From the NCBI GenBank assembly GCA_937894115.1, contig CALBFP010000303.1, positions 1 to 59,110 on the forward strand: a DNA stretch of 59,110 nucleotides, given 5' to 3'. A program made the translations under genes and the position numbers. Of this stretch, positions 9,940-35,143 are shown in pieces. The stretch is from an uncultured euryarchaeote (GTDB lineage Archaea; Thermoplasmatota; Poseidoniia; Poseidoniales; Poseidoniaceae). The number at the start of each line of letters is the position of its first letter. Positions within the stretch are counted from its first letter, which is position 1. Under the pieces are notes generated by a model. It was not told the origin of the DNA. It ran no database searches and saw only the letters and a list, made by a program, of their open reading frames with translations.

Positions 9940-10599
9940 ATGCGTCGTGAGGTGCTTTATGTCCTGACGATTGCTGTTGGCTTATTCGTCTCTGCGAAGT
10001 ATGCACAATGGCCTGTAGACATCTGGTGCATTGCAGTGTTTTCGGTGATCTTTTGGAAAACAAACCGCAAGGAACGCATCGAGATGATTGCCGTGCTTGC
10101 GTTTGCCACACCGATGGAATTGTTCTTCAGTGAGGTCTGGCTCATTTACGAGTATCAGCGGAACTTCATGCCGTTTTTTGTACCGTTTGGACATTACTTT
10201 TTGTTCGACCTTGGTCGACGTGTGGCGAAAACACTCCCAGATGGTTCCGCCATGAAACTCATTCTCATACTTGTCCCCTTGGTTGTTTATGGTGCAGTTG
10301 TTGGGACGGATACCTCAGCGATAGTTCTCATTGTCTTGACGCTAGGATTTGTGTATTGGGGTCCTGAACCACGTCTTTACGCTTCGATGGTCTGGCTCGC
10401 TTTGGCCATGGAATTATGGGGTACGTATCTAGGGAACTGGACATGGAAAAACGATGTACCTTGGACCAGCCTAACAGCATGGAACCCACCGCTTTTGGTC
10501 GGTGCTTTCTATTGTTTTGGAGATTTACTTGTTAATTTGAGCGTTGCTAAGTTTCAAGGACAACCCATTGCTGAGGTAAACCATGACGTCCTCGGATGA
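9940..10599 (+). CDS. Polytopic membrane protein, uncharacterised
   Basis: 219 aa from the internal ATG (MRREVLYVLTIAVGL). It has 6-7 hydrophobic helices. The upstream 36 codons of the track ORF overlap the preceding gene. Confidence 0.6.
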   Translation: MRREVLYVLTIAVGLFVSAKYAQWPVDIWCIAVFSVIFWKTNRKERIEMIAVLAFATPMELFFSEVWLIYEYQRNFMPFFVPFGHYFLFDLGRRVAKTLPDGSAMKLILILVPLVVYGAVVGTDTSAIVLIVLTLGFVYWGPEPRLYASMVWLALAMELWGTYLGNWTWKNDVPWTSLTAWNPPLLVGAFYCFGDLLVNLSVAKFQGQPIAEVNHDVLG

Positions 10600-10915
10600 G
10601 TTGAGGCTTCGCCGCGAAAAAGAGGCGAAGCGAATACGAGCGAGTCTGAACCGTCAACGTGGTATTCAACATGCTTCTCTCAAAGGAGGCGAGTCGGCCG
10701 TTGCCTTCGTTAAGGAACAGTTGTGTATTGGGTGTGACCAATGCACTATTGTTTGCGATGATGATGCTATTGAGGTCTACAAAGTGGCTATGCGCAGCCC
10801 TCTGATTCAAGTGGAAACCAATCAAAAAGCGAAAATTGTTCGGCAAGATTGTACGGGATGCAGACTGTGCGTACTTGCATGCCCAACCGATGCCATCAGT
10901 ATGATCGACCGATGA
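10583..10915 (+). CDS. 2x[4Fe-4S] ferredoxin-domain protein
   Basis: Two CxxCxxCxxxCP-type motifs, CIGCDQCTIVCD and CTGCRLCVLACP. It has a basic N-terminal extension. Confidence 0.85.
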   Translation: MTSSDELRLRREKEAKRIRASLNRQRGIQHASLKGGESAVAFVKEQLCIGCDQCTIVCDDDAIEVYKVAMRSPLIQVETNQKAKIVRQDCTGCRLCVLACPTDAISMIDR

Positions 10916-20171: not shown

Positions 20172-20693
20172 ATGGCCGGAGGAGGAACTGCACCCCCCAT
20201 GAAAATGAGTGATGTTCTGTTGCTCATTGGCGTTTCTCTTCTTGTTGGTACTTTGTTTATTCAGGAATGGGATCAAACCAAAGTCATCAAGGCCGGTGAA
20301 GACCCACTTGAGGGGACTTCACGTACCTTTTCGGGGGACGTTCTTGAGATTGCTGTGGTAACCAAAAACGGAACGGACATTGAATTCCAAATTTACGAGG
20401 ACGGAGAAGAAGTGACGGGATTTCCAGTTACAAAATTCTCAGATTCAAACAATAAAGCAGAAGTAGTGTATGAATCTGAAGGAGGGAAACTCAGCTGGAA
20501 AGTTGTTGTGAAGAGCGAAGTTGATGCAGAGATCGATGTCGACCTCCGACGTGCCTATTTCCTCAATTACCTACCGTATGTCCTTGGTGCACTGATTACT
20601 GCTGCTGGAGTAGCGAAAAAGAAAACCGATTTGCACAACGAGGACGACAACGTCCTTGATGCGATCATTGAGGGTGAAGATTCGTCCAAATAA
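20172..20693 (+). CDS. Membrane-anchored protein, uncharacterised
   Basis: 173 aa with N- and C-terminal hydrophobic helices flanking a beta-rich domain. Confidence 0.5.
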   Translation: MAGGGTAPPMKMSDVLLLIGVSLLVGTLFIQEWDQTKVIKAGEDPLEGTSRTFSGDVLEIAVVTKNGTDIEFQIYEDGEEVTGFPVTKFSDSNNKAEVVYESEGGKLSWKVVVKSEVDAEIDVDLRRAYFLNYLPYVLGALITAAGVAKKKTDLHNEDDNVLDAIIEGEDSSK

Positions 20694-22080
20694 TCTCCTC
20701 ATCGTCTCCAACACGATAGGTCTCCTCCCCATCGCTGAGAAGTTCGATATCGTGTTCACCAACCTTTTGCAATGTACACGTTTTTCCTCTATAGAAACAA
20801 TCGCTCAACAGAAATTCACTCGCAATCGAACCATTACCAATTCGTTTCAATGCGTCGTGTTTATGTTCAAACATCGATGCCACCACAGCGGAAAGGACTG
20901 CAAACAGATCCGAATGTTTGGACTGACCGATTTCTTCGAGAGAAGCCTGCCCTTTCTGTAGACCCTTCATGCTTGCATTGATGCCGATTCCAACCACGAT
21001 TCGTTGTTCATCACCCCTCGAAAAAGACTGGAACAAGATACCCCCGAATTTGCGCCACTTTTCACCGACCGAACTTCGCAACAAAAGGTCGTTTGGCCAT
21101 TTGGTGAGTATGAGATTCGTCTGGTTGCGTTCCAGACACAACGCATTTCGAATTTGTTGTGCCATTTCAAGTTGCACATAGGGCGTTGTCGACTTGAGAT
21201 GGCGTTTGTCAAGAAGCCATGATGCTTTGAAAGAACCTGGATGGTCCTGCCATGTGTTCCCATGACGTCCTCGACCTTGTGTTTGCGCAACAGCGACAAG
21301 CGAATCTCCCGATGCGTAATCTCCTCGCAAAAGTTCAGCGTTGGTTGAATCGATCTCCTTGAATTTGTGATGTTTTCCACTGACGAAGGGGTGCCATGCG
21401 GCAATTACGTGAATGGTTTCACGATCCTCAAAAGTCAACGTACGAACAATCCGCGCTGCAAGGCCTTGTTGACGTAGAACATCGACGCTACGTTTCCAGT
21501 GAACGACCTCTCGACAGACCAGCAAAGCGATTCCATTCCACGTGCAAAGTTTTCCATTTGACATCGAACGGGCAAAGACGTCAAGCAATCCAGTTGGATG
21601 CGTGTCAATGAGCGAAGCTTCCTCAAGCGGACCGAGTAAGTTTTCATTTACTTCTTTTTGAGGGATGTACGGCATGTTCCAAAGCACAACATCATAGAGA
21701 TCGTGATTCCAGCCGAAATCTGGTATTTGTTCATCTTGTGGCCCCAGCCCGCTTTCTGATACCTGTAGCACAACATTGTGACGTTTTGCGTTGTTTCTTG
21801 CAGCAGCCACGGCGTATGGATTGATGTCGCAAGCATCAACGGACCAACCGAGTTTTGCTGCAGCAATGGAGATGGCACCTGAACCGCATCCAATCTCAAG
21901 GAGTTTTTTTGCGCCGAAAGGTGCAATATCTGCGACAATGTCGTGGAGCAAGTCCGTATCTTCTCTTGGTGGATAAACAGTAGGTGGTACAACAAGTTCC
22001 ATCGAATTCCAGGTATAGATTTTGGCTTCCTGTTCTGAGAGAAATTCAATTTCGCGGAGGGCTCTTTTGTGATTGAACAT
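20665..22080 (-). CDS. birA: Fusion of an Mtq2/HemK-like SAM methyltransferase (N-terminal) and biotin-protein ligase BirA (C-terminal)
   Basis: 471 aa.
- N-terminal part: VYPPREDTDLL, SAM motif LEIGCGSGAIS and NMPY (an NPPY variant)
- C-terminal part: the biotin ligase signatures GRGRHGNTW and KWPNDLL. Confidence 0.85.
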   Translation of the reverse strand: MFNHKRALREIEFLSEQEAKIYTWNSMELVVPPTVYPPREDTDLLHDIVADIAPFGAKKLLEIGCGSGAISIAAAKLGWSVDACDINPYAVAAARNNAKRHNVVLQVSESGLGPQDEQIPDFGWNHDLYDVVLWNMPYIPQKEVNENLLGPLEEASLIDTHPTGLLDVFARSMSNGKLCTWNGIALLVCREVVHWKRSVDVLRQQGLAARIVRTLTFEDRETIHVIAAWHPFVSGKHHKFKEIDSTNAELLRGDYASGDSLVAVAQTQGRGRHGNTWQDHPGSFKASWLLDKRHLKSTTPYVQLEMAQQIRNALCLERNQTNLILTKWPNDLLLRSSVGEKWRKFGGILFQSFSRGDEQRIVVGIGINASMKGLQKGQASLEEIGQSKHSDLFAVLSAVVASMFEHKHDALKRIGNGSIASEFLLSDCFYRGKTCTLQKVGEHDIELLSDGEETYRVGDDEEIIWTNLHPQ

Positions 22081-22209: not shown

Positions 22210-22283
22210 GGGCCTGTAGCTCAGTCAGGTAGAGCGTCGGGCTTTTAACCCGATGGTCGCGGGTTCGAACCCCGTCGGGCCCG
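22210..22283 (+). tRNA. tRNA-Lys (anticodon UUU)
   Basis: Hand-folded cloverleaf.
- Acceptor stem GGGCCUG/CGGGCCC with one G-U pair
- D stem GCUC/GAGC
- Anticodon stem UCGGG/CCCGA with loop CUUUUAA
- T arm GCGGG-UUCGAAC-CCCGU
- Discriminator G; CCA is not fully encoded. Confidence 0.92.
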
Positions 22284-22331
22284 CCTACTGTGCCGCAGTA
22301 CAACGTTGAGGGCTGTGCGGGGTGACGTTGG

Positions 22332-22979
22332 ATGGTAGTAAAGAGTGCGACAAAAAAGCGGTTGATTGAACTCGGCGTCTCCGATGAATACGCCCACAAA
22401 CTGGCCACGGACCGAAACATGGCTGACATCAAAAGTATGCCGGCAGATGACATCGCTAAGATTCTTGGAATTGCCAAAGACAGCGAATCCTTCACTAAAA
22501 TCATGCAGATTATTGCAGATCAGGGCAACCGCAGATCTCGCATCAAAAAGAGCAAAAAGATTACCATTTCATCGAAAGCCTTGGACGAATTTGATCGTCC
22601 TGAAGTGAGCATTCGATTCAACCCTTTGAATCATGAGCTTGTACCGCATCAGGAACTCTTGGGTGATGCAAACATCAGCGAGGAAGAGCAGTACGAAATT
22701 GAGCGTGAAGAACTTTCGCCATGGGGTCTTGAAGAACTCGACGAAGACGGTAACCCGCGTCTAGCGAAGGAACTGCTTCCAAAAGTGTTGATTTCTGACC
22801 CAGTAGTACAGGCCATTAAGGAAGCGGCTGAAATCGCCGACAACGCAGCACTGGCAGCGAACCCCGATCATCGTCCACTCGCTGCTGGATGGATTGCAGA
22901 CCGCGTTCTCAAAGTAAAGCGACGGTCCAAGTCTGCAGGCACCGCCGTTGCCTATCGCCTCGTCGTGGAAGGCAGTTGA
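22332..22979 (+). CDS. rpoH: RNA polymerase subunit H (Rpo5) with ~115-aa N-terminal extension
   Basis: The C-terminal ~90 aa (HELVPHQELL ... LPKVLISDPV ... VLKVKRRSKSAGTAVAYRLVV) match the RpoH core. It lies directly upstream of rpoB. A GGGGTGA SD is present. Confidence 0.85.
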   Translation: MVVKSATKKRLIELGVSDEYAHKLATDRNMADIKSMPADDIAKILGIAKDSESFTKIMQIIADQGNRRSRIKKSKKITISSKALDEFDRPEVSIRFNPLNHELVPHQELLGDANISEEEQYEIEREELSPWGLEELDEDGNPRLAKELLPKVLISDPVVQAIKEAAEIADNAALAANPDHRPLAAGWIADRVLKVKRRSKSAGTAVAYRLVVEGS

Positions 22980-22995
22980 GTAAGGAGTTGATAAC

Positions 22996-25900
22996 ATGCA
23001 AGAAATAATTGAATCTTTTTTCCGAGAACGAAGCCTAGTTAACCATCAACTCGCGTCGTACAACGACTGCATCCCGTCAACCGACAATCAGCGTTCTCGC
23101 ATGGAACGCATCATCAGTAACATCCGCGTAGGAACTGATGAAGAAATTATCGACGAGCACGGCGGTTACATCAAACTCGACGTCGCAGACCAAGAAATTG
23201 TTATTCGAATGAAAAACATCAAACTCGGAGCTCCCAATATTCGTGAAGCAAACGGCTCGTATCACAACGCCTCGCCAATGGAATGCCGTCTTCGAAAATT
23301 AACCTATCAATCTCCAGTCACCATCGATTTTACAATCTGGAAGAACGGTGTAGCCACCTTCCCAGAAAAAGACGTGCAAGTTGGTGCTATCCCAATTATG
23401 GTCCGCTCGAAAAGGTGCCACCTCCACCCAAGTCACATCGCTGATCGCCTTCTCGAACCTTCAAAATCACCCGATGACGCCGCTACACTCGCAGAAAAAC
23501 TTCGTGAAAAGGGAGAAGATCCTCTCGACCCTGGTGGTTATTTCATTATCAACGGAACAGAACGAGTTCTCATCTCGATGGAAGACCTTGCTCCGAATCG
23601 AGTCACAGTAGAAATCAACAAGCGAACCGCGAAGCGAACAGAAGTAGCGAAAATCTTCTCACAGAAGAACGGAATGCGCAAACCGCTTACGGTGGAAAAG
23701 CGCCGAGATGGAATGTTGATGGTAAAAGTCAGCACTGCGGGTACCACACCAATTCCTGTTGTGCTGCTTATGCGAGCTTTGGGTATCGAGAACGATCAAG
23801 AGATATTCACAGCAATCTCAGGACCTCAAGAGACCTTCAAATTCATCGTCGCCAACATCAACGAAGTCAACGACAACGAGGAATTTTACGTAAAGAGCGA
23901 ACCTGAGGCATACGAATGGCTGCAAAAGAAATTCGCTGCAGGTCAACAAAAGGAATACCGAGAGGCACGGGTCAACCAACTTTTGGACAGAGAGCTGCTC
24001 CCACATCTCGGCGATCAACCTGAAGATCGTAAGAAGAAAGCAATCTTCCTCGGGCGTATCGTACGCCAAGTTCTTGAGATGGCTTTGAACGATAAAGAAC
24101 CCAACGACAAGGACCACTACGCAAACAAGCGAGTTCGTTTGGCAGGTGACCTTATCGAAGACTTGTTCCGTGTGTCATCAGGACAACTCGCTCGCGATTT
24201 GAAATATCAACTCGAGCGACATCACAATCGAAAGCGTGAACTCAAAATAACCTCCTGCCTACGACCGGATGTTCTCTCTTCCAAGATTCTGCACGCGCTA
24301 GCAACCGGTAACTGGGTAGGCGGTCGTTCTGGTGTGAGCCAATTGCTCGACCGAACAACTTACCTCGCTTCGCTTTCGCACATGCGAAGAGTGACCTCGC
24401 CACTGGTTCGCAGTCAACCGCATTTTGAAGCTCGAGATTTGCACCCAACGCAATGGGGCCGTCTGTGTCCAAACGAGACACCTGAAGGTCAAAATTGTGG
24501 ATTGGTAAAGAATGCGGCTCAAATGGTCGACATCTCTGAAGAAATTGATCCACAGGAAATTCGAGAGCGCCTTGATGAACTCGACGTTTATCAACCCAAA
24601 GACTGGACCGACGGCGATCGAGTTCACGTTAACGGTGACATCTACGGTATGCATAAGAACGGAAAGAATCTTCTTTCTCAGTTCAAGAACAGCAGAAGGC
24701 GTGGAACGATTCCATCCGAGGTATCCATCCGTCACGATACAGAAAACCGAGACATCTTCATCAACACCGACAAAGGCAGAATTCTGCGACCATTGCTCAT
24801 TCTCTACGACGGGGCGCCCCGACTTGAAAACAGCCACTTGGCTGACTTAGCAGCTGGTAACATTACGTTCCGTGACTTGGTCATTGACGGTATTGTTGAA
24901 TGGGTCGATGCTGAGGAAGAGGAAGATCTCTACATCGCTCCACGTCCCTTCGTCCTCCCCGAAAATGTACCTGAAGGACCGCTCGCAGGCCGACCGGTAA
25001 CCCATGAGAACATCCGATGGATCAACCTCGGAGAGCCGGGTGTGGAATTCGCTTCCTTGGAAGCAGAGGTTCGAATGCCAAACGGTAGCATGGAAGTTGC
25101 TAAATTCGACGTTCCTTTGCTGTATTCGTCCGAACACACCCACGTCGAAATTGATCCACAACTTGTTCTCGGTGTCTGTGCCTCACTCATTCCATACCCT
25201 GAACACAACTCAACTCCACGTGTCACCGGTGGTACAGCGATGGTCAAGCAATCGCTTGGCCTTCCAAGCGCAAATTATCGGTTGAGGCCTGATACGCGGG
25301 CGCACATCTTGCACTACCCACACCGTTCCATTGTTCGAACCGATGCAATGCGAACCACGAACTTCGACGAGCGACCAGGTGGCCAGAATTTCATCGTGGC
25401 AATCATGTCCCTTCACGGTTACAACATGCAGGATGCGGTCATCATGAACCGTGCTTCCGTAGACCGTGGGCTTGGCCGCTCGACATTCAATCGAACCTAC
25501 AACGCAGAACGTCGTCGTTTCCCAGGCGGACAAGTCGAGGAAATCGAAAAGCCTGGCAACAAACTGACCGAAGTGAAAGGATTGAAGCCAGTTGAAGCTT
25601 ACTCACACCTCGAAGACGACGGTCTACCTCGTCCTGAAACATTCCTTCAGGGTGGAGACGTACTCGTCGGTAAGACCAGTCCTCCCCGATTTTTGGAAGA
25701 ATCCAACAGCGGTGCTTTCCTCATGGCTCAAGAGCGAAGAGAATCATCGATGCTCGTCCGTCACGGTGAGATGGGATGGGTTGACAACGTATACGTCACG
25801 GAATCGGACAACTCAGGCCGCTTGGTTCGAGTCATGGTCCGAAGTCACAAGGTACCAGAAGTCGGAGATAAATTTGCTTCACGACACGGACAAAAGGGAG

Positions 25901-26601
25901 TTATTGGACGGCTTGTTGAACCTGAAGATATGCCGTTCACTCGAGATGGAGTCGTGCCCGACTTGATCATCAACCCTCACGCCATTCCATCACGAATGAC
26001 TGTTGCTCACGTCCTTGAGATGATCGGCGGTAAAGTAGGTGCTATGGAAGGCCGTAGAATCGATGGAACCGCCTTCCGAGGAGAAAAAGAAAGCAGCCTT
26101 CGAGACGGTTTGGTCCGCAATGGGCTTGCTCATACAGGGCGAGAGACAATGATTAACGGCGAAACTGGAGAAGCTTACCCTGCTGACATCTTTGTTGGAT
26201 GCATCTACTACCAGCGTCTTCACCACTTGGTCAGTTCAAAGATTCACGCTCGCTCTCGCGGTCGTGTTCAAATTCTCACACGTCAGCCGACAGAAGGTCG
26301 TGCACGACAAGGTGGTCTACGATTTGGTGAGATGGAACGTGATTGTCTCATCGCACACGGTGCTTCGATGGTGATTAAAGATCGTCTCCTCGATGAATCC
26401 GATGGAATCGACATGTTCGTATGTGCCCAATCGGGACACATAGCGTGGTACGACCCGAAACGTCGTACATACGTGAGCCCTGTTCACGGAGATGGTGCGG
26501 AAGTCTACAAGGTACAAACCTCGTATGCTTTCAAACTCCTTCTTGACGAAATGAAAAGTCTTGGCGTTGCCATGCGACTAGAACTGGAGGACCGAAGATG
26601 A
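22996..26601 (+). CDS. rpoB: RNA polymerase subunit B (unsplit)
   Basis: 1201 aa with canonical blocks such as GKFASRHGQKGV, MPFT..G..PD..INPH..PSRMT and GEMERDCLIAHGA. Confidence 0.97.
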   Translation: MQEIIESFFRERSLVNHQLASYNDCIPSTDNQRSRMERIISNIRVGTDEEIIDEHGGYIKLDVADQEIVIRMKNIKLGAPNIREANGSYHNASPMECRLRKLTYQSPVTIDFTIWKNGVATFPEKDVQVGAIPIMVRSKRCHLHPSHIADRLLEPSKSPDDAATLAEKLREKGEDPLDPGGYFIINGTERVLISMEDLAPNRVTVEINKRTAKRTEVAKIFSQKNGMRKPLTVEKRRDGMLMVKVSTAGTTPIPVVLLMRALGIENDQEIFTAISGPQETFKFIVANINEVNDNEEFYVKSEPEAYEWLQKKFAAGQQKEYREARVNQLLDRELLPHLGDQPEDRKKKAIFLGRIVRQVLEMALNDKEPNDKDHYANKRVRLAGDLIEDLFRVSSGQLARDLKYQLERHHNRKRELKITSCLRPDVLSSKILHALATGNWVGGRSGVSQLLDRTTYLASLSHMRRVTSPLVRSQPHFEARDLHPTQWGRLCPNETPEGQNCGLVKNAAQMVDISEEIDPQEIRERLDELDVYQPKDWTDGDRVHVNGDIYGMHKNGKNLLSQFKNSRRRGTIPSEVSIRHDTENRDIFINTDKGRILRPLLILYDGAPRLENSHLADLAAGNITFRDLVIDGIVEWVDAEEEEDLYIAPRPFVLPENVPEGPLAGRPVTHENIRWINLGEPGVEFASLEAEVRMPNGSMEVAKFDVPLLYSSEHTHVEIDPQLVLGVCASLIPYPEHNSTPRVTGGTAMVKQSLGLPSANYRLRPDTRAHILHYPHRSIVRTDAMRTTNFDERPGGQNFIVAIMSLHGYNMQDAVIMNRASVDRGLGRSTFNRTYNAERRRFPGGQVEEIEKPGNKLTEVKGLKPVEAYSHLEDDGLPRPETFLQGGDVLVGKTSPPRFLEESNSGAFLMAQERRESSMLVRHGEMGWVDNVYVTESDNSGRLVRVMVRSHKVPEVGDKFASRHGQKGVIGRLVEPEDMPFTRDGVVPDLIINPHAIPSRMTVAHVLEMIGGKVGAMEGRRIDGTAFRGEKESSLRDGLVRNGLAHTGRETMINGETGEAYPADIFVGCIYYQRLHHLVSSKIHARSRGRVQILTRQPTEGRARQGGLRFGEMERDCLIAHGASMVIKDRLLDESDGIDMFVCAQSGHIAWYDPKRRTYVSPVHGDGAEVYKVQTSYAFKLLLDEMKSLGVAMRLELEDRR

Positions 26602-29600
26602 GTCGAAAAACCACATTGATTCCAAAGCGAATTGCTCAAATACGTTTCAGTCTGATGGATCCTGTTGAAATCAGAAAGATGTCTTCTGTGGAAGTCAAGA
26701 CGCCCGACACCTACAAAGACGACGGGCATGCCTACCGCCAAGGACTGATGGACCCCCATATGGGCGTTATCGAACCCGGTCTTGTGTGTCCAACGGACAA
26801 TTGCAAGTACGACGAATCACCTGGACACTTTGGACACATACAACTTGAACTTCCTGTCATCCACATCGGGTTTGTGAACCTGATTAAAACCGCATTGAAA
26901 TCCACATGTAAGGCTTGCAGTCAGGTACTCCTACACTCAGCAAAAGAGACGCATCCATCCAACCCAGAACTCTCTGAACAAGATTACTACCGTTCTCGAA
27001 TCAAAGACATCATCACCAAGCACGGTGTTGGTTCAACGGAATTTTCGAGCATCATAAAAGAAGTGGAGAAGGTCGCTTCAGCTAAAAATCGACGAACATG
27101 CATGCACTGTGGTGAAACGCAAGGAGAAATTCGACTGGATAAGCCAACCACGTTCAAAGAGAAAACCGAGAACATCGGTACCGGTGGAAAGGAAACAGAG
27201 CGCAAAATGAATCCTCGTGATGTACGAGAGTGGCTTGGAAGCATCCCCGATGAGCACCTGATTTTCATTGGCATGGACAAACAAAATCGGCCGGAATGGA
27301 CCGTTCTCAAGGTTCTACCTGTTCCACCTATCACCGTGCGACCATCGATTACCCTCGACAGTGGTGACCGCTCGGAGGACGACTTGACACACAAGTTGGT
27401 GGATGTTCTACGAATCAATCAACGTTTACAAGAAAACCGCGACTCTGGCGCACCGCAACTGATTGTTGAAGATCTCTGGGAGTTGTTGCAATATCACGTA
27501 ACCACCTACTTCGACAATCAAACGTCAGGTGTTCCACCTGCCCGACACCGTTCGGGACGTACACTCAAAACCTTAACACAGCGACTGAAAGGCAAAGAGG
27601 GACGATTCCGATCGAACCTTTCTGGAAAGCGTGTCAACTTTTGTGCGCGCTCCGTCATTTCTCCTGACCCATACCTCGGGGTCAACGAAGTCGGTGTCCC
27701 GGTCAAGGTTGCCAAGGAGTTGACGGTTCCAATCCGTGTCACACTCCGAAACCGCGAGCAGATGCGACAGATGATTCTCCGTGGCCCCGATGTTCACCCT
27801 GGTGTTAACTACATCGTGCGTGGAGACGGCCGACGCGTTCGAATCAACCCTCGCAGTCGACTGATCAACGCCGGATTCCGATGTCACAACCCCGAATGTG
27901 GTATCGATCAAGCAGGTCTCTATCACGGTGAAGCCTTCAACCTTCACTCGGTGCTTCCAGCACCGAATTTCCTTCCGGGTTTGGTCGTTCGTGAAGTTCG
28001 ACCGCTCGGTGAGGACGGTTCAACCGGTCACATCTCTGAATCCACTTACGTGGTTGACGATGAAGCCACACTTCGAAATCTTCGTGGTGAAGATGAATAC
28101 GGACACCCACTTCCTGAATCGGACCCACGAGCGGTTCTTCACTACCGTTGGATGCATGAACTTGCACAGGCTGACAACCCTGACCCAGAGCCGTTCCCAG
28201 AGCATTTGGACGTTTGTTGCCCTCACTGCAACAGCCCTGTTGACGACTTCGGTATGCCAACGCCAATCGAAGACCGACTTTCAACCGTTGACATACGCGG
28301 CAACCCGAAACCAGGAATGCAAGTTGAGCGCCACCTCATCGATGGTGATGTGGCAATCTTCAACCGACAACCATCACTTCACAGAATGTCTATGATGGTA
28401 CACGAGGTTCGTGTCATGGAAGGTCACACATTCCGCTTCAATCTTGCAGTTTGTACTCCATACAATGCCGATTTCGACGGTGATGAAATGAACCTTCACG
28501 TGATTCAGTCCGAAGAAGCTCGTGCCGAAGCAAAAATCTTGATGCGCGTACAGGAACACATCCTGACTCCTCGCTACGGTGGAGCCGTCATTGGAGGTAT
28601 TCACGATCACATCTCTGGTGCATACCTTCTTTCTCGCCCAGGTACTTTGGTTTCCAAAGCACACGGTCTTGAAATGCTTGGCAGCATCGACTACACGGGA
28701 GCACTTCCTGAAATCGTCAAAGATGAAAAGGGTAATGATGCATTTAGAGGTCAAGACCTCATTTCACTCATCGTTCCTGACAACATTAACCTCCGCTTTA
28801 TGTCTCGGAGCCGTGATGAAGTTCACGTCAAAGACGGTAACGTAGTAGGAACACTCGACAAGCGAGCCATCGGTGCTGAAGACGGACGCCTCCTCGATGC
28901 AATTGTGCAGAGCAATGGTTCGGAGAAAGGGGCCCAGTTCCTCAACGATTTTACTCGACTTTCGATTGCAGCCTGCACTTCACTCGGATTCACAACAGGT
29001 ATCGATGACGAAGATTTGAGTCGAACAGCACTTGAAGCAATCGATCAAGCCAACGAAACTGCACGTGCTCTCGTCGAAGAAGAGCTTGAACGGTTTGAGG
29101 CAGCCAAGGGCGACCCGAGGGTGTATGAGCCCCGACCCGGACGAACCATGCGAGAAACTCTTGAGGAGAACATCATGGTTATGCTCGATGAAGGAAAACA
29201 AGCTGCTGGTGACATAGCAAAGGATGAATTGAACCAATCCGGCTCGACCAACGCTGCAGTGAACATGGCAATTTCTGGTGCTCGCGGTTCCATGGACAAC
29301 CTCAACATGATGGCTGGTTCAATCGGTCAAGCGAAGGTACGTGGTAAGCGCCTTGAGCGAGGATACAATGAACGGGTTCTGCCGCATTTCAAGCGCGGTG
29401 GACGTGGAGCACAGGACCGTGGATTCATTTCAGGTTCATTCAAGCGCGGTCTCGAACCTACAGAGTTCTTCATGCTCTCGGTTTCAGGTCGCGAGTCTCT
29501 GGTCGATACCGCTGTCCGTACATCGAAGTCGGGATACATGCAACGTCGACTGATTAACGCCATGGACGATTTGAAGGTGTTCAACGACGACATGCTTTCG

Positions 29601-29831
29601 GTTCGAAACACAGCGAACCGCATCATTCAGTTCTCTTACGGTGAGGATGGAATCGATCCAAGCCGTGGCGTGCACGGTGCTGCTTTCAACATCGATGTCA
29701 TCATCGATGGTGCCCTCGGTACACAAGGTGGAACCAAAGACACTCGCGAAAGCATCGAACAGGAAGAGCGCGAAGATGATCTCGGAGCATGGGATGATGT
29801 CGAAGAATTCCATGATGGAGGTGAGGTCTGA
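26598..29831 (+). CDS. rpoA1: RNA polymerase subunit A' with a lineage-specific insertion
   Basis: 1077 aa. It has the zinc-binding N-terminus, [12 protein letters not shown] and the catalytic [10 protein letters not shown]. It is about 190 aa longer than typical A' subunits. Confidence 0.97.
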
Positions 29832-31399
29832 TGGTCGTTAAGAGTGCAACCAAGAAGAAGCTCATGGATTTGGGCATCGCTGAGAACTTCGCTCATACAC
29901 TTGCGAATGATCGAAAGTGGGATGACGTCAAGGTTCTCTCCGCACAAGACATCGCTCAAGTTTGCGAAACGGATTCTGAGACTGCTGGATCGATTCGAGA
30001 CACCATCGAAGGGGCTCTCAAGAAGAATCGTGCTGCCGGCTCCGAAGCTACCGGGCCTACAACCAACGTTCGCCTCAAACGACGTGTTAGTACAAGAACA
30101 CGCTCGCGTGCTAAGATTGCAGCAGATCTCGATTCCTATAAAATGGATAAAAAAATCAGTTCGTTTGAGGATGAACTCGCAAAAGACCCAGTCTACAAGT
30201 CCCTCAGAGCAGCCATCGACGACCTAGGAACAAACCGGTTCAGTGACAAAATTGTTCACGACATGACCGTTGCCATCCACGATCGTAACATCAAGAAATT
30301 GACGAAGAAGCAGGCTTCCACACTGGTCGCAGACGCCTACGATGCTTTGGACAAAGCAAGCATCGACCCCTTCGAAGCAGCTGGGATCATCACCGCACAA
30401 TCCATTGGTGAACCAGGAACACAGATGACCATGCGTACGTTCCACTATGCAGGTGTTGCGACGGTTAACGTAACGCAAGGTCTACCTCGTATCATTGAGA
30501 TTGTTGACGCACGAAAGATTCCAAGCACTCCAACGATGATCATTCGCTTGAAGGGTGAAAAAATGAACTCTTCAACCGAAGCTCAAAAATTAGCAGCCGC
30601 TCTTGAGGTCACCACAACAGCCAACATCGCTAACATCGAGACCGATGTTGCCCAACGCCGCTTGGTTTTGAAACTCAACAAAGGCCTTCTGAAGCAGAAA
30701 AACATGACGGGTAATGAAGTCAAAGACAAGCTTGAGCGTGCATTGCGAACGTTGGTACAGGCTGACAAAGACAAGAATCCCGGTGTTTTGACCATCATAC
30801 CCGGTGTTTCAAGCGAAGAAGATCTTGCTGATTTGCAAGAGAATCCACCGTCGTATACCATGTTGTTGCAACTCGAAGAGAAGATTCGTGACCTACGGCT
30901 CAAAGGCGTACCAGGAATTGAGCGTGCAAACGTCCAATACGATGATAAAAAAGAGGAATACTACCTCTCGACCATTGGTTCGAATCTCTCACGGGTCAGT
31001 GAAATCGAAACCATTGACCGAACCCGAACTTACACCAACAACATCATTGAAATTTTCAACTATCTGGGTATTGAAGCAGCGCGTCAAGCCATTATCAATG
31101 AACTTGAATCAACGCTGCTCAGTGCTCGACTTGAAGTCGATGTCCGCCACCTGTTGATGGTTGCTGATGTTATGACTTCAGAAGGAGAAGTACGAGCGAT
31201 CGGTCGACACGGTGTTTCGGGTACAAAGCACAGTATTCTTGCTCGTGCAGCCTTCGAAGTTACGGTCAACCATCTTCTAAAGGCAGGTATCATTGGAGAA
31301 ACCGACCGACTTACCGGTGTTGCTGAGAACATCATTGTTGGACAACCCATTTCACTTGGAACAGGAAGTGTTGAGTTGTTCTACATCCCAGAGGAATGA
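29831..31399 (+). CDS. rpoA2: RNA polymerase subunit A'' with ~130-aa N-terminal extension
   Basis: 522 aa. The A'' core begins near [30 protein letters not shown] is present, and the start overlaps the rpoA1 stop (ATGA-type). Confidence 0.95.
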
Positions 31400-31795: not shown

Positions 31796-34700
31796 ATGCG
31801 CCAACACTTGAACGGACTCTGTGCTGTCTTCCTCATCTCCATAATGCTTGGTTCTGTAGCGTTACCACAGTTCCCAAATGCTGAAAAGAAGGTTACGGAA
31901 CTTGACGAATCGCCAGAATCGTTCTTGACAAGTAGCCGTTCTGCACCCAGTACAATTCTTGCCACAGGGTCTGGTCAAGCCAACGAAGATGGAGAACACA
32001 TCGTAGCCCTTCCAAATGGCGGCTGGGTTGTGGGAATGTCGGAATGGACAAACTCGACATTGACCTATGGGACTCATACGCTCTCTACAACCTCTCCCTT
32101 CAATTCGATTGGATATGGTGAATTCTTCCTAGCAATGATGGATGACCAAGGGTCCTGGACTGGATTCATAAGCGCTGACCACAGCATTGGCAGTGGCGGT
32201 CTATCGATACTCACCGACGTTACTGTTGGTATGGCTGGGGAAATTTTTGTTTGCGGTTATTTTTACGGAGAAATTGCATTTGGTCCACCAGGTCCAAATA
32301 CCATTATTACAAACCTCAACTCTGGATATCATCTCGAAGGGTTTGTTGCGAAAGCAGACCCAATGGGTAATTGGATGTGGGCCACGAGTTTCACAACTTT
32401 GGTGAACGGTTCTGGAGAATTCAGCAGAGCCAAGTCGTTATCCGTTGATATGATGGGCGATCTGTTTGTCTCGGGTGAGTTTAGTGGTGAAACCGATTTT
32501 GGTGGCCAGAGCATAAATGCAACAAGCCGTGACGTCTTTATTGGAAAATTTGACGGGAACATGGGTACACTCAACTGGGTCATCAATGGAGGTGGAATTG
32601 GTACGGACCAAGTTTTTGATATGGCGGGTACACCATCAGGCGGTGTCAAATTGGCCACGTCAACAGACGGCGTCTCCCAGTGGGGAGCCAACACATACAT
32701 AGCAAATGGAAATCTTGACGCCGTTCTTGTCGATATTGATGCTAATGGAGGTGTGGTTGGCACGACAGGGATTGGAACGAGTGGCCAAATTACTGCAGTC
32801 TTGAAAATCCACGTCGATGGAGGTGGGAACACGTTCATGGCTGGGACTTTTGATGGAACAATTACCAGTGGAGGTTGGACTGCAACCGCAAGTTACGGTG
32901 GTAACGATATCTTTGTTGCAAAGAGTGCTGTGAACCAAGCCAACAGTTGGGCACTCGTTTCAGGCACAAACGCATACGACGAACCGCGAGCGCTTGCTGT
33001 AACCTCAAACGGTGGTGTTGTTTACGGTGGTTCCCTTGGCTCAACATTTACAGCGGGTTCTAAATCGATTTCAAACTCAAACGACGACGGTTTTGCCGTT
33101 GGTCTCTCCACAACTGGTTCGGTCAATTGGATTGAAAAGATTGGAGGATCACAATACGATTACGTTTGGGCTATGGATGTAAACAATTCAGATTACGTTG
33201 GTGCTGCAGGGGCTTTCTCCGGTTCTATGACGCACAAAGGAGTCTCGGTCACATCTGGAGGTTACCGCGATGTCTTTGCTTGGATTTTTGATCCAGCAGG
33301 ACTGATTGATACCGATGGTGATGGAGTCGTGGATTCAGCACCCGATAATTGTCCGACAGTTCCAAATTCTGATCAAGCCAATACAGACGGTGACTCAGAG
33401 GGGGATGCTTGTGACTCCGACGACGATAACGATGGACTGACGGACAGCTTCCCAGACAATTGCCCAAGAAATGGTGAATTCAATTGGACCAGTGATCGCG
33501 ATTTCAATGACCCTGCATCTTCGACCGATTGGGACAACGATGGGTGCAAAGACGATTCCACCGAAGACCTCGACGATGACAATGACGGTGTGCAAGATGC
33601 AGACGATGCCTGTCCACGCACCAGTTATTCTCCTCCACGACCAACATGGGTTTCGGATACAACAACCGACACTGATGGTGATGGCTGCCGAGATTCGGAT
33701 GAAGACTTGGACGATGACAACGATGGCTTTGAGGACGCTGCAGACGATTGTCCTACGGTTGTTGGAACATCCAGTCTCGGTACAGACGGATGCATTGATT
33801 CCGATGGTGACCTCTGGTCGGATACAACCGATGATTGTCCGACTGAGGCGGGAAATTCAACAGAAGGCGGATTGAACGCTTGTCCCGATCAGGACGGCGA
33901 TGGTTGGGCCGATTCGATTGATGATATGCCAATGGACCCAACGGTTTGGAGCGACCTCGATGATGATGGATTTGGCGACAATCTTGGAAGTACACCTGCC
34001 GATGCATGTCCACAAACACCGGGTACATCAACGGCGGACCGCTACGGTTGTGTCGATGCTGATGGTGATGGTTACTCAACACCGACAGAGGATTGGGGCG
34101 TCGACAGTGGTGCGGATGCATTCCCAAGCGATTCGACCCAATGGAGCGACTTCGATGAGGACGGTTTTGGTGACAATTACGGAAACGCTTCATGGACGGA
34201 TCGGCCAGAAAACTGGGTAGGAATCTTTGTTGATGGGGCCCAAGATCAAGATGCTTGTCCGATGCAACCTGGAACCAGTTGGCGTAACGGCATCCTCGGA
34301 TGTCCGGATTCCGACGGTGATGGTTGGTGGGATGTGCAAGATGCCTTCCCTACAGAAGCGACGCAACACTCGGATGTTGATGGTGATGGTTTCGGTGACA
34401 ATCAGAGCGGAGTGAATGCTGATGCATGTCCAAACATAGGTGGGAACTCAACGTTCGATCGTCTTGGTTGCATCGATACGGACGGCGACGGACGGTCCGA
34501 CCCTGAGTTGAGTTGGACGTTTATTGACGGTGGTGACGAATTCCGCCTCGAATCAACACAGTGGTCTGATTCCGATGATGATGGTTACGGGGATGAAATT
34601 GATGGTTTCCAAGGAGATGCTTGTCCAACTGTTTACGGTTTATCGTTTGAGGACCGGTTTGGTTGCCCAGATACGGACCGCGATGGTTATTCCGACCCCG

Positions 34701-35143
34701 ATGCAAACTGGACGATTGAAGACGGCGCTGATGCCTACATAACCGATTCAACAGCGTATGTGTACGTCGAACCGGTAGAAGTAGAGAGTGAAGAAGAGAA
34801 CTTTTTCACAAGTCCGCTGATGCTCATTGTGTATGCTTCAATCGTGTTGGTTCTCGTAGGATTGGGATTCATGATGACTCGACGTTCCAAGAAAGAAGAA
34901 TCAATCGATATCGCCTCGTTTGGTAGTCAACAACCAATGATGCAACAAATGACGGTTCCCCTTGCTCAAACCAATCCGTATCAGCAACCTGTACAAAATC
35001 AGACTTATACGCAGGTCGCTGCCCCTCAGCCGGTTCAACCTGATCCTGCAATGGAATACTACAACGGTTTACTCGCACAAGGATACACGCCCGAACAGGC
35101 TTCAATGTATACAAAGCAGTATTTCCCTCAATTCAACCACTGA
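31796..35143 (+). CDS. Giant surface protein: signal peptide, SBBP-like beta-propeller repeats, thrombospondin type-3 (Ca-binding) repeats, TM anchor and Gln/Pro-rich tail
   Basis: 1115 aa. N-terminal repeats look like GDLFVSGEFSGETDFGG. There are more than 15 DxDxDGxxDxxDxCP-type repeats. The TM helix is LMLIVYASIVLVLVGLGFMM. Confidence 0.85.
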   Translation: MRQHLNGLCAVFLISIMLGSVALPQFPNAEKKVTELDESPESFLTSSRSAPSTILATGSGQANEDGEHIVALPNGGWVVGMSEWTNSTLTYGTHTLSTTSPFNSIGYGEFFLAMMDDQGSWTGFISADHSIGSGGLSILTDVTVGMAGEIFVCGYFYGEIAFGPPGPNTIITNLNSGYHLEGFVAKADPMGNWMWATSFTTLVNGSGEFSRAKSLSVDMMGDLFVSGEFSGETDFGGQSINATSRDVFIGKFDGNMGTLNWVINGGGIGTDQVFDMAGTPSGGVKLATSTDGVSQWGANTYIANGNLDAVLVDIDANGGVVGTTGIGTSGQITAVLKIHVDGGGNTFMAGTFDGTITSGGWTATASYGGNDIFVAKSAVNQANSWALVSGTNAYDEPRALAVTSNGGVVYGGSLGSTFTAGSKSISNSNDDGFAVGLSTTGSVNWIEKIGGSQYDYVWAMDVNNSDYVGAAGAFSGSMTHKGVSVTSGGYRDVFAWIFDPAGLIDTDGDGVVDSAPDNCPTVPNSDQANTDGDSEGDACDSDDDNDGLTDSFPDNCPRNGEFNWTSDRDFNDPASSTDWDNDGCKDDSTEDLDDDNDGVQDADDACPRTSYSPPRPTWVSDTTTDTDGDGCRDSDEDLDDDNDGFEDAADDCPTVVGTSSLGTDGCIDSDGDLWSDTTDDCPTEAGNSTEGGLNACPDQDGDGWADSIDDMPMDPTVWSDLDDDGFGDNLGSTPADACPQTPGTSTADRYGCVDADGDGYSTPTEDWGVDSGADAFPSDSTQWSDFDEDGFGDNYGNASWTDRPENWVGIFVDGAQDQDACPMQPGTSWRNGILGCPDSDGDGWWDVQDAFPTEATQHSDVDGDGFGDNQSGVNADACPNIGGNSTFDRLGCIDTDGDGRSDPELSWTFIDGGDEFRLESTQWSDSDDDGYGDEIDGFQGDACPTVYGLSFEDRFGCPDTDRDGYSDPDANWTIEDGADAYITDSTAYVYVEPVEVESEEENFFTSPLMLIVYASIVLVLVGLGFMMTRRSKKEESIDIASFGSQQPMMQQMTVPLAQTNPYQQPVQNQTYTQVAAPQPVQPDPAMEYYNGLLAQGYTPEQASMYTKQYFPQFNH
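33308..34740 (+). repeat. Coding tandem array of thrombospondin type-3-like Asp-rich calcium-binding repeats
   Basis: Reiterated motifs DTDGDG, DSDGDGW, DxDDDGFGDN and (A/D)CP(x)xxG occur throughout the translation. At the DNA level these appear as recurring gatggtgatgg / gacggcgatgg units. Confidence 0.8.

Follow-up and report, generated by a model that had tools for sequence, protein, structure and literature searches.

Why should two different subunits of one archaeal RNA polymerase begin with the same small domain? This question is raised by a 59,110-nucleotide stretch of DNA from an uncultured euryarchaeote of the Poseidoniaceae (assembly GCA_937894115.1, contig CALBFP010000303.1, positions 1 to 59,110 of the forward strand; the whole stretch is referred to as the window), in which rpoH (22332-22979, plus strand) encodes an RpoH of 215 amino acids and rpoA'' (29831-31399, plus strand) an RpoA'' of 522 amino acids. 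Marine Group II archaea (Poseidoniales) are very abundant ocean microbes, and archaeal RNA polymerases have only a few accessory modules, with Rpo13 of the Sulfolobales as the classic example. Each of these modules has shown how the archaeal enzyme handles DNA without the eukaryotic set of factors. Here, we describe the N-terminal module that RpoH and RpoA'' have in common, its occurrence on other proteins, and the functions that it may serve.

The N-terminal module of RpoH and RpoA''

In a BLASTP comparison, residues 1-61 of RpoH align with residues 1-59 of RpoA'' at an E-value of 2e-13, with 29 of 61 positions identical, 41 of 61 positive and a single 2-residue gap near residue 47. Both proteins start with MVVKSATKK (residues 1-9). 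An earlier, sequence-only reading of this DNA had proposed a paralogous domain of about 60 residues from an alignment of 46 residues; this alignment is indeed free of gaps and identical over its first nine residues, and the conserved domain, with about 62-64 amino acids, has the size proposed there. The RpoH copy (residues 1-64; 22332-22523, plus strand), supported by BLASTP, AlphaFold2 (AF2) and the proportions of nonsynonymous and synonymous differences (pN and pS), represents an H-type with the signature AHKLATDRNM and a net charge of 0. The RpoA'' copy (residues 1-62; 29831-30016, plus strand), supported by BLASTP and pN/pS, represents an A''-type with the signature AHxLA[DN]DRKW and a net charge of -3. 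Searching all six reading frames of the window with tblastn and a profile hidden Markov model revealed exactly two copies. Judged by their sequences, the modules of RpoH and RpoA'' are true paralogues.

The sequence-only reading had also placed a basic linker and then the canonical subunit core behind each module, and the counts of charged residues and the positions of the Pfam domains agree with this layout. The RpoH linker (residues 65-95, GNRRSRIKKSKKITISSK...; 22524-22616, plus strand) was assigned from its composition, with 10 K/R against 4 D/E and a net charge of +6, and from the AF2 confidence; it contains an RR...K[IV]TIS motif that is kept among relatives. It is followed by the RpoH/Rpb5 assembly-domain core (residues 96-215 and the stop codon; 22617-22979, plus strand), which has internal insertions, starts with an FNPLNHELVPH motif and contains the Rpb5_C family PF01191 at residues 144-211 (E 2.8e-8; score 33.8 bits, with the cut-off at 23.5). 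In RpoA'', the linker spans residues 63-114 (30017-30172, plus strand), of which residues 63-100 form the basic part with 11 K/R against 2 D/E and a net charge of +9; this part precedes the first residue that can be aligned to a solved Rpo1C. The RpoA''/Rpo1C core begins at about residue 115 (30173-31399 including the stop codon, plus strand), carries Rpb1 domain 5 (PF04998) at residues 144-468 with an E-value of 7e-51, and contains the trigger-loop motif GEPGTQMT.

Comparison with solved structures defines how much of this is additional. By phmmer, RpoA'' residues 134-290 match residues 19-177 of solved archaeal Rpo1C (E 8e-34; 36rp_C/7ok0 and other chains), while full-length RpoH found no match in the PDB. 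The solved Rpo1C chains are 393-397 amino acids long, and their alignment starts with their residue 19-21 against residue 134-135 of the window protein, so about 115 residues of RpoA'' are extra. The N-terminal 83-100 residues of RpoH and RpoA'' matched no Pfam family even at E<=1. In archaea, Rpo5/H is normally nothing more than the assembly domain (PMC2675907), and the extension is thus absent from the standard form of both subunits, as the sequence-only reading had supposed.

Both extended reading frames have a plausible translation start. A Shine-Dalgarno-like GGGGTGA lies 6 nt 5' of the rpoH ATG (22319-22325, plus strand), and its GGGGT core is found at equal distance 5' of rpoH in orthologous loci. 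The rpoA'' ATG is preceded by the Shine-Dalgarno-like GGAGGTGA (29817-29824, plus strand), which is located within the 3' end of rpoA' and is likewise kept across orthologous loci. In addition, the stop codon of rpoA' (29829-29831) and the ATG of rpoA'' (29831-29833) share a nucleotide in a TGATG sequence (29829-29833, plus strand), as seen from the ends of the two reading frames. This is the usual coupling arrangement and suggests translational coupling right at the start of the module. Alternative starts further downstream are not conserved: RpoH has no methionine beyond residue 58, Met105 of RpoA'', which lies near the start of the canonical core, is not kept in relatives, and no other internal methionine is conserved.

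The substitution pattern points in the same direction. Against 79 orthologues, the RpoH module has a pS of 0.63 and a pN of 0.11, and against 47 orthologues the RpoA'' module has a pS of 0.70 and a pN of 0.11. Over codons 2-11, pN falls to 0.002 in RpoH and to 0.002-0.005 when both modules are considered, which corresponds to a pN/pS of about 0.004-0.02 in these codons and of about 0.15 in the module. This shows that the module is translated and under strong purifying selection and, together with the Shine-Dalgarno-like sites, the TGATG overlap and the absence of a conserved internal methionine, that the start codons of both extended reading frames are real. The possibility that the beginning of each gene is kept as an RNA or DNA element was also considered and rejected, because the first nine codons of the two window copies differ solely by synonymous third-position changes.

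Distribution in Poseidoniales and on virus-like contigs

A scan of GTDB with one genome per species returned at least 550 module-encoding stretches, the best 80 of which were inspected. All 80 are Poseidoniales-type rpo operons, in which RpoH is a complete reading frame of 215-217 amino acids starting with the module, except for two loci that are cut by a contig end; the RpoA'' module is present in 48 of the 48 loci that reach rpoA''. Conservation thus extends to both subunits, as the earlier reading would lead one to expect. The GTDB contig PAJM01000019.1 has 100% identity over the module, and a divergent relative with 57% GC encodes the same operon with both modules on a 151-kb contig. Among 1.84 billion cluster representatives, 205 profile matches were obtained at E<=1e-3, and the MVVKSATKK-type signature is present in all 150 of the 150 matches listed; about 120 cluster representatives carry the RpoA'' module. 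Such a small number of matches in a collection of this size indicates a narrow module family. To judge from these searches, every relative examined has the module on RpoH as well as on RpoA'', and the module carried by the Poseidoniales RNA polymerase appears to be lineage-specific.

In protein databases, the records of close relatives are mostly fragments, and they are named as RpoH/Rpb5 C-terminal domain-containing protein, as subunit A'' or as hypothetical protein. Literature searches for the peptide MVVKSATKK, for Poseidoniales RNA polymerase together with helix-hairpin-helix, and for N-terminal extensions of Rpo5 retrieved no description of the module. Three of the archaeal rpoH loci (L009, L019 and L050) are found in GTDB bins labelled as Rhodobiaceae, Salipiger bermudensis and Verrucomicrobiales, and are likely contaminating contigs of these bacterial bins.

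The module also occurs outside of RNA polymerase. The profile search also retrieved proteins other than RpoH and RpoA'', and when their C-terminal parts were clustered, the module was found to head at least 13 unrelated ORFan families (at least two members each, less than 50% mutual identity) and additional singletons. These ORFans are about 120 to 1292 amino acids long, and in the clustered families the module is located at the extreme N-terminus. Only the first 41-45 residues are conserved in these copies, following the pattern MVVKSATKK[KR]L[ML][DE]xGxxExxAHxLAxDR[KN][WM]. Most of them are of the A''-type (DDRKW) and a few of the H-type (TDRNM), with one family mixing both. Searches of the module-bearing ORFans against Pfam and PHROGs gave almost nothing, and PDB sequence searches with P0182 and the P0213 family gave no match.

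The encoding contigs were looked up for several of these ORFans, and those examined contain dense, co-directional ORFans plus genes that are typical of viruses or mobile elements. L082 encodes an archaeo-eukaryotic primase, a TFIIB homologue and WYL_2; L088 a Cas4-like nuclease; L089 a DNA methyltransferase and a protein with a weak tail-fibre-like match; and the 155.6-kb contig L090 three N6/N4 methyltransferases. A FEN-like exonuclease on L084 was recognised by reading the sequence only. L093 encodes Mom, an ERCC4 nuclease, PCNA, a ribonucleotide reductase and two tandem module genes. By this gene content, the contigs are virus-like or mobile-element-like. Scanning IMG/VR with the module alignment retrieved no relatives, and neither a consensus-like module sequence (tblastn) nor the PCNA of L093 matched INPHARED phages; the virus-like contigs are therefore not tied to the named magroviruses.

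Some details of these contigs deserve mention in their own right. The tandem module genes of the 27.5-kb L093 occupy positions 10001-10848, with starts at 10001 and 10534, and adjoin the ribonucleotide reductase, PCNA, ERCC4 nuclease and Mom genes. Homologues of TFIIB/TFB are encoded on L082 (7569-8411), L088 (4625-5578) and L089 (11522-12475). The L082 copy matches the Pfam TFIIB repeat at an E-value of 2e-28, and its nearest relatives in phage collections are the TFB genes of Halorubrum tailed viruses and of Sulfolobales viruses, with only about 26% identity. The one clear case, among those examined, of a module that is not N-terminal is P0210 (851 amino acids; L085, 1012-3567), which contains an internal H-type copy at residues 93-147. 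This protein also has zinc fingers of the C2H2 type and an ABC-type ATPase that resembles NsnB, AAA_15 and AAA_21 (PADLOC, E 2e-38). P0178 has a copy near its C-terminus (residues 452-506).

Elements L088 and L089 are syntenic with L082 and encode a P0213-family homologue of 268 amino acids that lacks the module. Since the same family thus exists with and without it, the module is an accessory, shuffled N-terminal add-on. When host copies were compared with those of mobile elements, pS was 0.64-0.98, which means saturation of the synonymous sites, and pN was 0.13-0.27. Ser5 is specified by AGT in the window, whereas several mobile-element copies use TCA or TCT. The combination of saturated pS and low pN points to purifying selection and a long-term constraint at the protein level in both settings. 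Recent gene transfer or gene conversion as the source of the similarity is ruled out by the saturation of the synonymous sites.

These data modify the evolutionary scenario of the earlier reading, in which two copies on one enzyme had been attributed to duplication and fusion. The paralogy of the RpoH and RpoA'' modules agrees with this, but with the module heading at least 13 other families, duplication and fusion within RNA polymerase can be only part of the history. The occurrence of the module on so many unrelated proteins also makes a shared, specific target a strong alternative to plain DNA contact.

Predicted fold and possible function

From an alignment of 38 sequences, which is shallow, AF2 predicts the module to be a five-helix bundle (helices 5-14, 18-24, 30-35, 38-45 and 52-63) with a mean predicted local distance difference test score (pLDDT) of 86. 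The model of full-length RpoH keeps the same helices at a module pLDDT of about 83, with values below 50 for residues 68-106, 60-79 for the core, and a predicted template modelling score (pTM) of 0.40. According to these models, the RpoH module would be an independent folded unit on a probably flexible tether. The RpoA'' linker, like that of RpoH, is a basic and probably disordered segment of about 30-50 residues.

The five predicted helices fit the layout of an (HhH)2 domain, i.e. two helix-hairpin-helix (HhH) motifs joined by a connector helix. In the PDB, Foldseek ranked (HhH)2 domains highest, with query TM-scores (TMq) of 0.58-0.71 and probabilities of up to 0.99, all of them at non-significant E-values of at least 0.28. 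They include FANCM from the FANCM-FAAP24 complex (4bxo_A; TMq 0.71, probability 0.99), 9q2a_G (TMq 0.68) and the C-terminal half of UvrC (2nrv_A; TMq 0.63). Further non-significant matches are the N-terminal domains of RAD51 paralogues and RadA, NusA, endonuclease III and RuvA, and SAM and helix-turn-helix proteins are mixed among the PDB matches. We compared the hairpins with the HhH consensus h-x-x-h-x-G-h-G-x-x-x-A. Hairpin 1 reads L-G-[VI]-[SAEP]...A-H, with Gly15 in at least 90% of the sequences and a nearly invariant Ala21. Hairpin 2 reads L-G-[IV]-[SA] in the RpoH type and C-E-T-D, without any glycine, in the RpoA'' of the window.

At the sequence level, no corresponding relationship was detected. 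Searching the module profile against PDB sequences gave a single chance match (E 0.6), and the isolated N-terminal regions matched neither the Pfam HhH families (HHH, HHH_5 and others) nor the SAP families at E<=1. In hhalign comparisons with approximate reference sequences, the probability was 2% for the RadA N-terminal sequence and 0.1% for the alpha subunit C-terminal domain (alpha-CTD) of Escherichia coli, for which there was also no Pfam match. Foldseek searches of viral structures in BFVD gave weak helix-turn-helix and sigma-like matches only. The module may thus be grouped with (HhH)2/SAM-like domains by its predicted fold, while it fails membership in their sequence families. The sequence-only reading had suggested an HhH- or SAP-like nucleic-acid-binding module; the predicted HhH-like fold is in line with the first part of this suggestion, but homology to Pfam HhH or SAP families was not found and the Foldseek E-values are 0.3 or higher.

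Domains of the (HhH)2 type contact the backbone of DNA, form pairs with one another or with other proteins, or do both. The module resembles those of the FANCM/FAAP24, XPF/ERCC1 and UvrC C-termini, of RuvA domain II, of the RadA/Rad51 N-terminal domain and of the acidic NusA repeats in its predicted five-helix, two-hairpin layout, and it keeps a glycine in hairpin 1, but differs in having no match to Pfam HhH families or PDB sequences and, in the window RpoA'', a degenerate second hairpin. We know of no counterpart to its MVVKSATKK and DR[KN][WM] motifs in (HhH)2 domains. A second point of comparison is the bacterial alpha-CTD, which contacts DNA at UP elements and provides a docking surface for regulators. 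Like the module as predicted by AF2, it is a small helical HhH-like domain that is connected by a flexible linker to an RNA polymerase subunit and is present twice per enzyme. In contrast to the module, which is N-terminal on RpoH/Rpb5 and RpoA''/Rpb1, the alpha-CTD is C-terminal on alpha, the Rpb3/RpoD-like subunit, and it is contributed by two identical chains instead of diverged paralogues on separate subunits. The analogy drawn in the earlier reading is therefore compatible with the predicted succession of module, linker and core, but is not accompanied by sequence homology.

Two further systems are related to the module by their position. The eukaryotic Rpb5 jaw is an extra N-terminal domain on the same assembly domain and on the downstream-DNA side (PMC2675907), but it comprises about 130 amino acids compared to 62 in the module, which in addition is placed on a probably disordered linker, rather than packed against the core, and is duplicated on RpoA''. 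Homology to the jaw was rejected, because scanning full-length RpoH against Pfam at E<=1 revealed Rpb5_C as the only match above its cut-off and no Rpb5 N-terminal family; that yeast Rpb5 has 215 amino acids, like the RpoH of the window, is a coincidence. Rpo13, to our knowledge not shared with viruses, is likewise a lineage-specific, small helical element. It has basic flexible tails, is located beside Rpo5/H and was proposed to contact downstream DNA, but it is a separate subunit of about 104 amino acids with a helix-turn-helix core and not a fused domain, and its orthologues are confined to Sulfolobales and Desulfurococcales with none in Euryarchaea (PMC2675907). The position of Rpo13 beside Rpo5 shows that archaeal lineages filled the site next to Rpo5 independently. 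With these comparisons, we regard the module as a new sequence family, a tethered accessory module of the predicted (HhH)2 type on RNA polymerase; that it is shared with mobile-element proteins is unexpected.

As an explanation that we prefer tentatively, and to which we would assign not quite an even chance, the modules are tethered arms that contact DNA and partner proteins, acting like the alpha-CTD without being homologous to it. In this scheme, the modules would be mobile and, together with their basic linkers, would add contacts to DNA near the enzyme; they would also present a docking surface for partners, and mobile-element proteins that bear such a module would be brought to the target that the arms contact. 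Downstream DNA would be the most likely target, because the N-terminus of RpoH is the site of the Rpb5 jaw, which binds downstream DNA, and of Rpo13. We take the start of RpoA'' (approximately Rpb1 residue 1000-1037) and the Rpb5 assembly domain to belong to one and the same unit, the 'shelf' module of Pol II. Archaeal Rpo5 lacks the Rpb5 jaw, and the adjoining site near downstream DNA has different occupants: in eukaryotes the jaw, in Sulfolobales Rpo13 and in Thermus an insertion of beta' (PMC2675907).

Several observations weigh against such arms. With net charges of 0 and -3 the modules themselves are not basic, and the second hairpin of the window RpoA'' has lost its glycine. Acidic (HhH)2 domains, for example the NusA repeats, bind proteins and not DNA. 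Residues 1-11 hardly vary between the paralogues and the copies on mobile elements, at saturated synonymous sites, a conservation that is far tighter than non-specific contact with the DNA backbone requires. Moreover, the mobile-element proteins have no basic linker, and the Foldseek E-values of 0.3 and above are non-significant for such a small domain.

These points lead to the most serious alternative, which we consider somewhat less likely than the arms, namely a role of the module in specific protein-protein docking. In this case, the H- and A''-types would bind each other, like the (HhH)2 domains of XPF-ERCC1 or FANCM-FAAP24, or one invariant site, and viruses would fuse mimics of them to effectors, so that the fusions encoded by mobile elements would plug these effectors into, or compete for, a site of the host transcription machinery. 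This would explain why residues 1-34 are nearly invariant in the RNA polymerase and mobile-element copies at the pS and pN values given above, and why Ser5 is retained across the AGT and TCN codon families. The TDRNM and DDRKW types co-occur in every genome, and the mobile copies fall into either type. That a single family bears the module on one syntenic element and lacks it on others is the behaviour of an add-on adaptor, and the NsnB-like, defence-type ATPase with its internal H-type copy could be a sensor or a decoy. The best structural match, although non-significant by its E-value, is FANCM taken from a complex with FAAP24, and the (HhH)2 domains of these two proteins form a heterodimer. 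Finally, the RpoA''-type module is acidic, and the Rpo5/clamp-head groove is positively charged and holds the small helical Rpo13 in Sulfolobales (PMC2675907). On the other hand, the basic linkers of the RNA polymerase copies are more easily explained by contact with nucleic acid, and the viral nature of the contigs is derived from their gene content and finds no matches in IMG/VR or INPHARED. Docking is furthermore compatible with the tethered DNA- and partner-contact arms, since the alpha-CTD does both jobs.

In a bolder form of the docking alternative, which we regard as unlikely, the H- and A''-type modules would recognise one invariant site of the transcription machinery, the viruses and mobile elements of Poseidoniales would have made them a universal adaptor that plugs a dozen or more unrelated effectors directly into RNA polymerase, and the defence ATPase would carry a decoy or sensor copy. 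Mutual binding of the two modules might then close the linkers into a strap around downstream DNA, or the modules might bind the Rpo5/clamp-head groove. If true, this adaptor would be an undescribed, modular route of domain mimicry for hijacking an archaeal RNA polymerase.

It is improbable, to a still greater degree, that the module is a structural or assembly aid without any outside ligand, which folds, solubilises or assembles RpoH and RpoA'', for instance by packing on the acidic tail of RpoA'; other proteins would then bear it as a generally useful N-terminal cassette for folding or expression. Apart from P0210 and P0178, the module is always at the extreme N-terminus, with a strong Shine-Dalgarno-like site close by; the C-terminal 40 residues of RpoA' carry a net charge of -11 and adjoin the basic linker of RpoA''; and there is no known ligand. 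However, AF2 does not dock the module onto the RpoH core in any fixed way, as reflected by the pTM of 0.40, a generic folding aid needs neither two co-occurring signature types nor near-invariant surface lysines, and the lack of conservation at the nucleotide level rules out an RNA-level expression cassette.

An annotation artefact, in which translation starts downstream and the extension is an untranslated leader, is excluded for practical purposes and this reading effectively refuted: some public gene calls do begin RpoH at Met12 (205 amino acids) and Met105 of RpoA'' is close to the start of the canonical core, but the purifying selection on the amino acids of the module at saturated synonymous sites, the conserved start signals of both genes, the lack of a usable downstream methionine and the confident AF2 fold all argue for translation from the first codon.

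The polymerase of Marine Group II carries two domains, on predicted tethers, that are absent from the solved archaeal enzymes, one of them at the site of the eukaryotic Rpb5 jaw. The presence of the same module on virus-like contigs, under an equally tight constraint, points to a single conserved target and to a possible conflict between virus and host that is centred on the polymerase. Although the host is uncultured, the module is small, and recombinant proteins would allow these hypotheses to be tested. Its sequence might in addition be used as a marker that ties uncultured viruses and mobile elements to Poseidoniales hosts.

Genes around the two modules

The two module genes belong to an rpoH-rpoB-rpoA'-rpoA'' operon, in which RpoB and RpoA' were identified downstream of rpoH by Pfam; the genes flanking rpoH and rpoA'' are those for tRNA-Lys, rpoB, rpoA' and an L7Ae/L30e-family protein. 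The tRNA-Lys(TTT) gene occupies positions 22210-22285, which leaves only 46 nt between its end and the rpoH start codon. Given this short gap, the rpoH promoter must be located within it, unless the operon is co-transcribed with the tRNA.

RpoA' is 1077 amino acids long and contains an insertion of about 140 amino acids in Rpb1 domain 2 (27880-28310, residues ~428-570), at which Pfam splits the domain. Two cysteine pairs within it (CHNPEC ... CCPHC) suggest a zinc ribbon. The insertion is a further lineage-specific extra of the enzyme. The C-terminal 40 residues of RpoA' (29709-29828), with 14 D/E and 3 K/R, directly precede the module and the basic linker of RpoA'', and this acidic tail might pair with the linker.

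Divergent from tRNA-Lys and rpoH, the minus strand encodes a protein of 471 amino acids (20665-22080) in which a small PrmA/MTS-like methyltransferase domain is fused to a domain of the biotin/lipoate protein ligase type. In L094 and L095, two divergent relatives, rpoH likewise has this fusion upstream. On the other side of the operon, directly after the L30e-like gene, positions 31796-35143 encode a protein of 1115 amino acids that is predicted to be secreted or membrane-anchored; it contains numerous Asp-rich, thrombospondin type 3-like repeats, and its C-terminus is rich in Gln and Pro. The usual genes at this position are presumably NusA-S12-S7.

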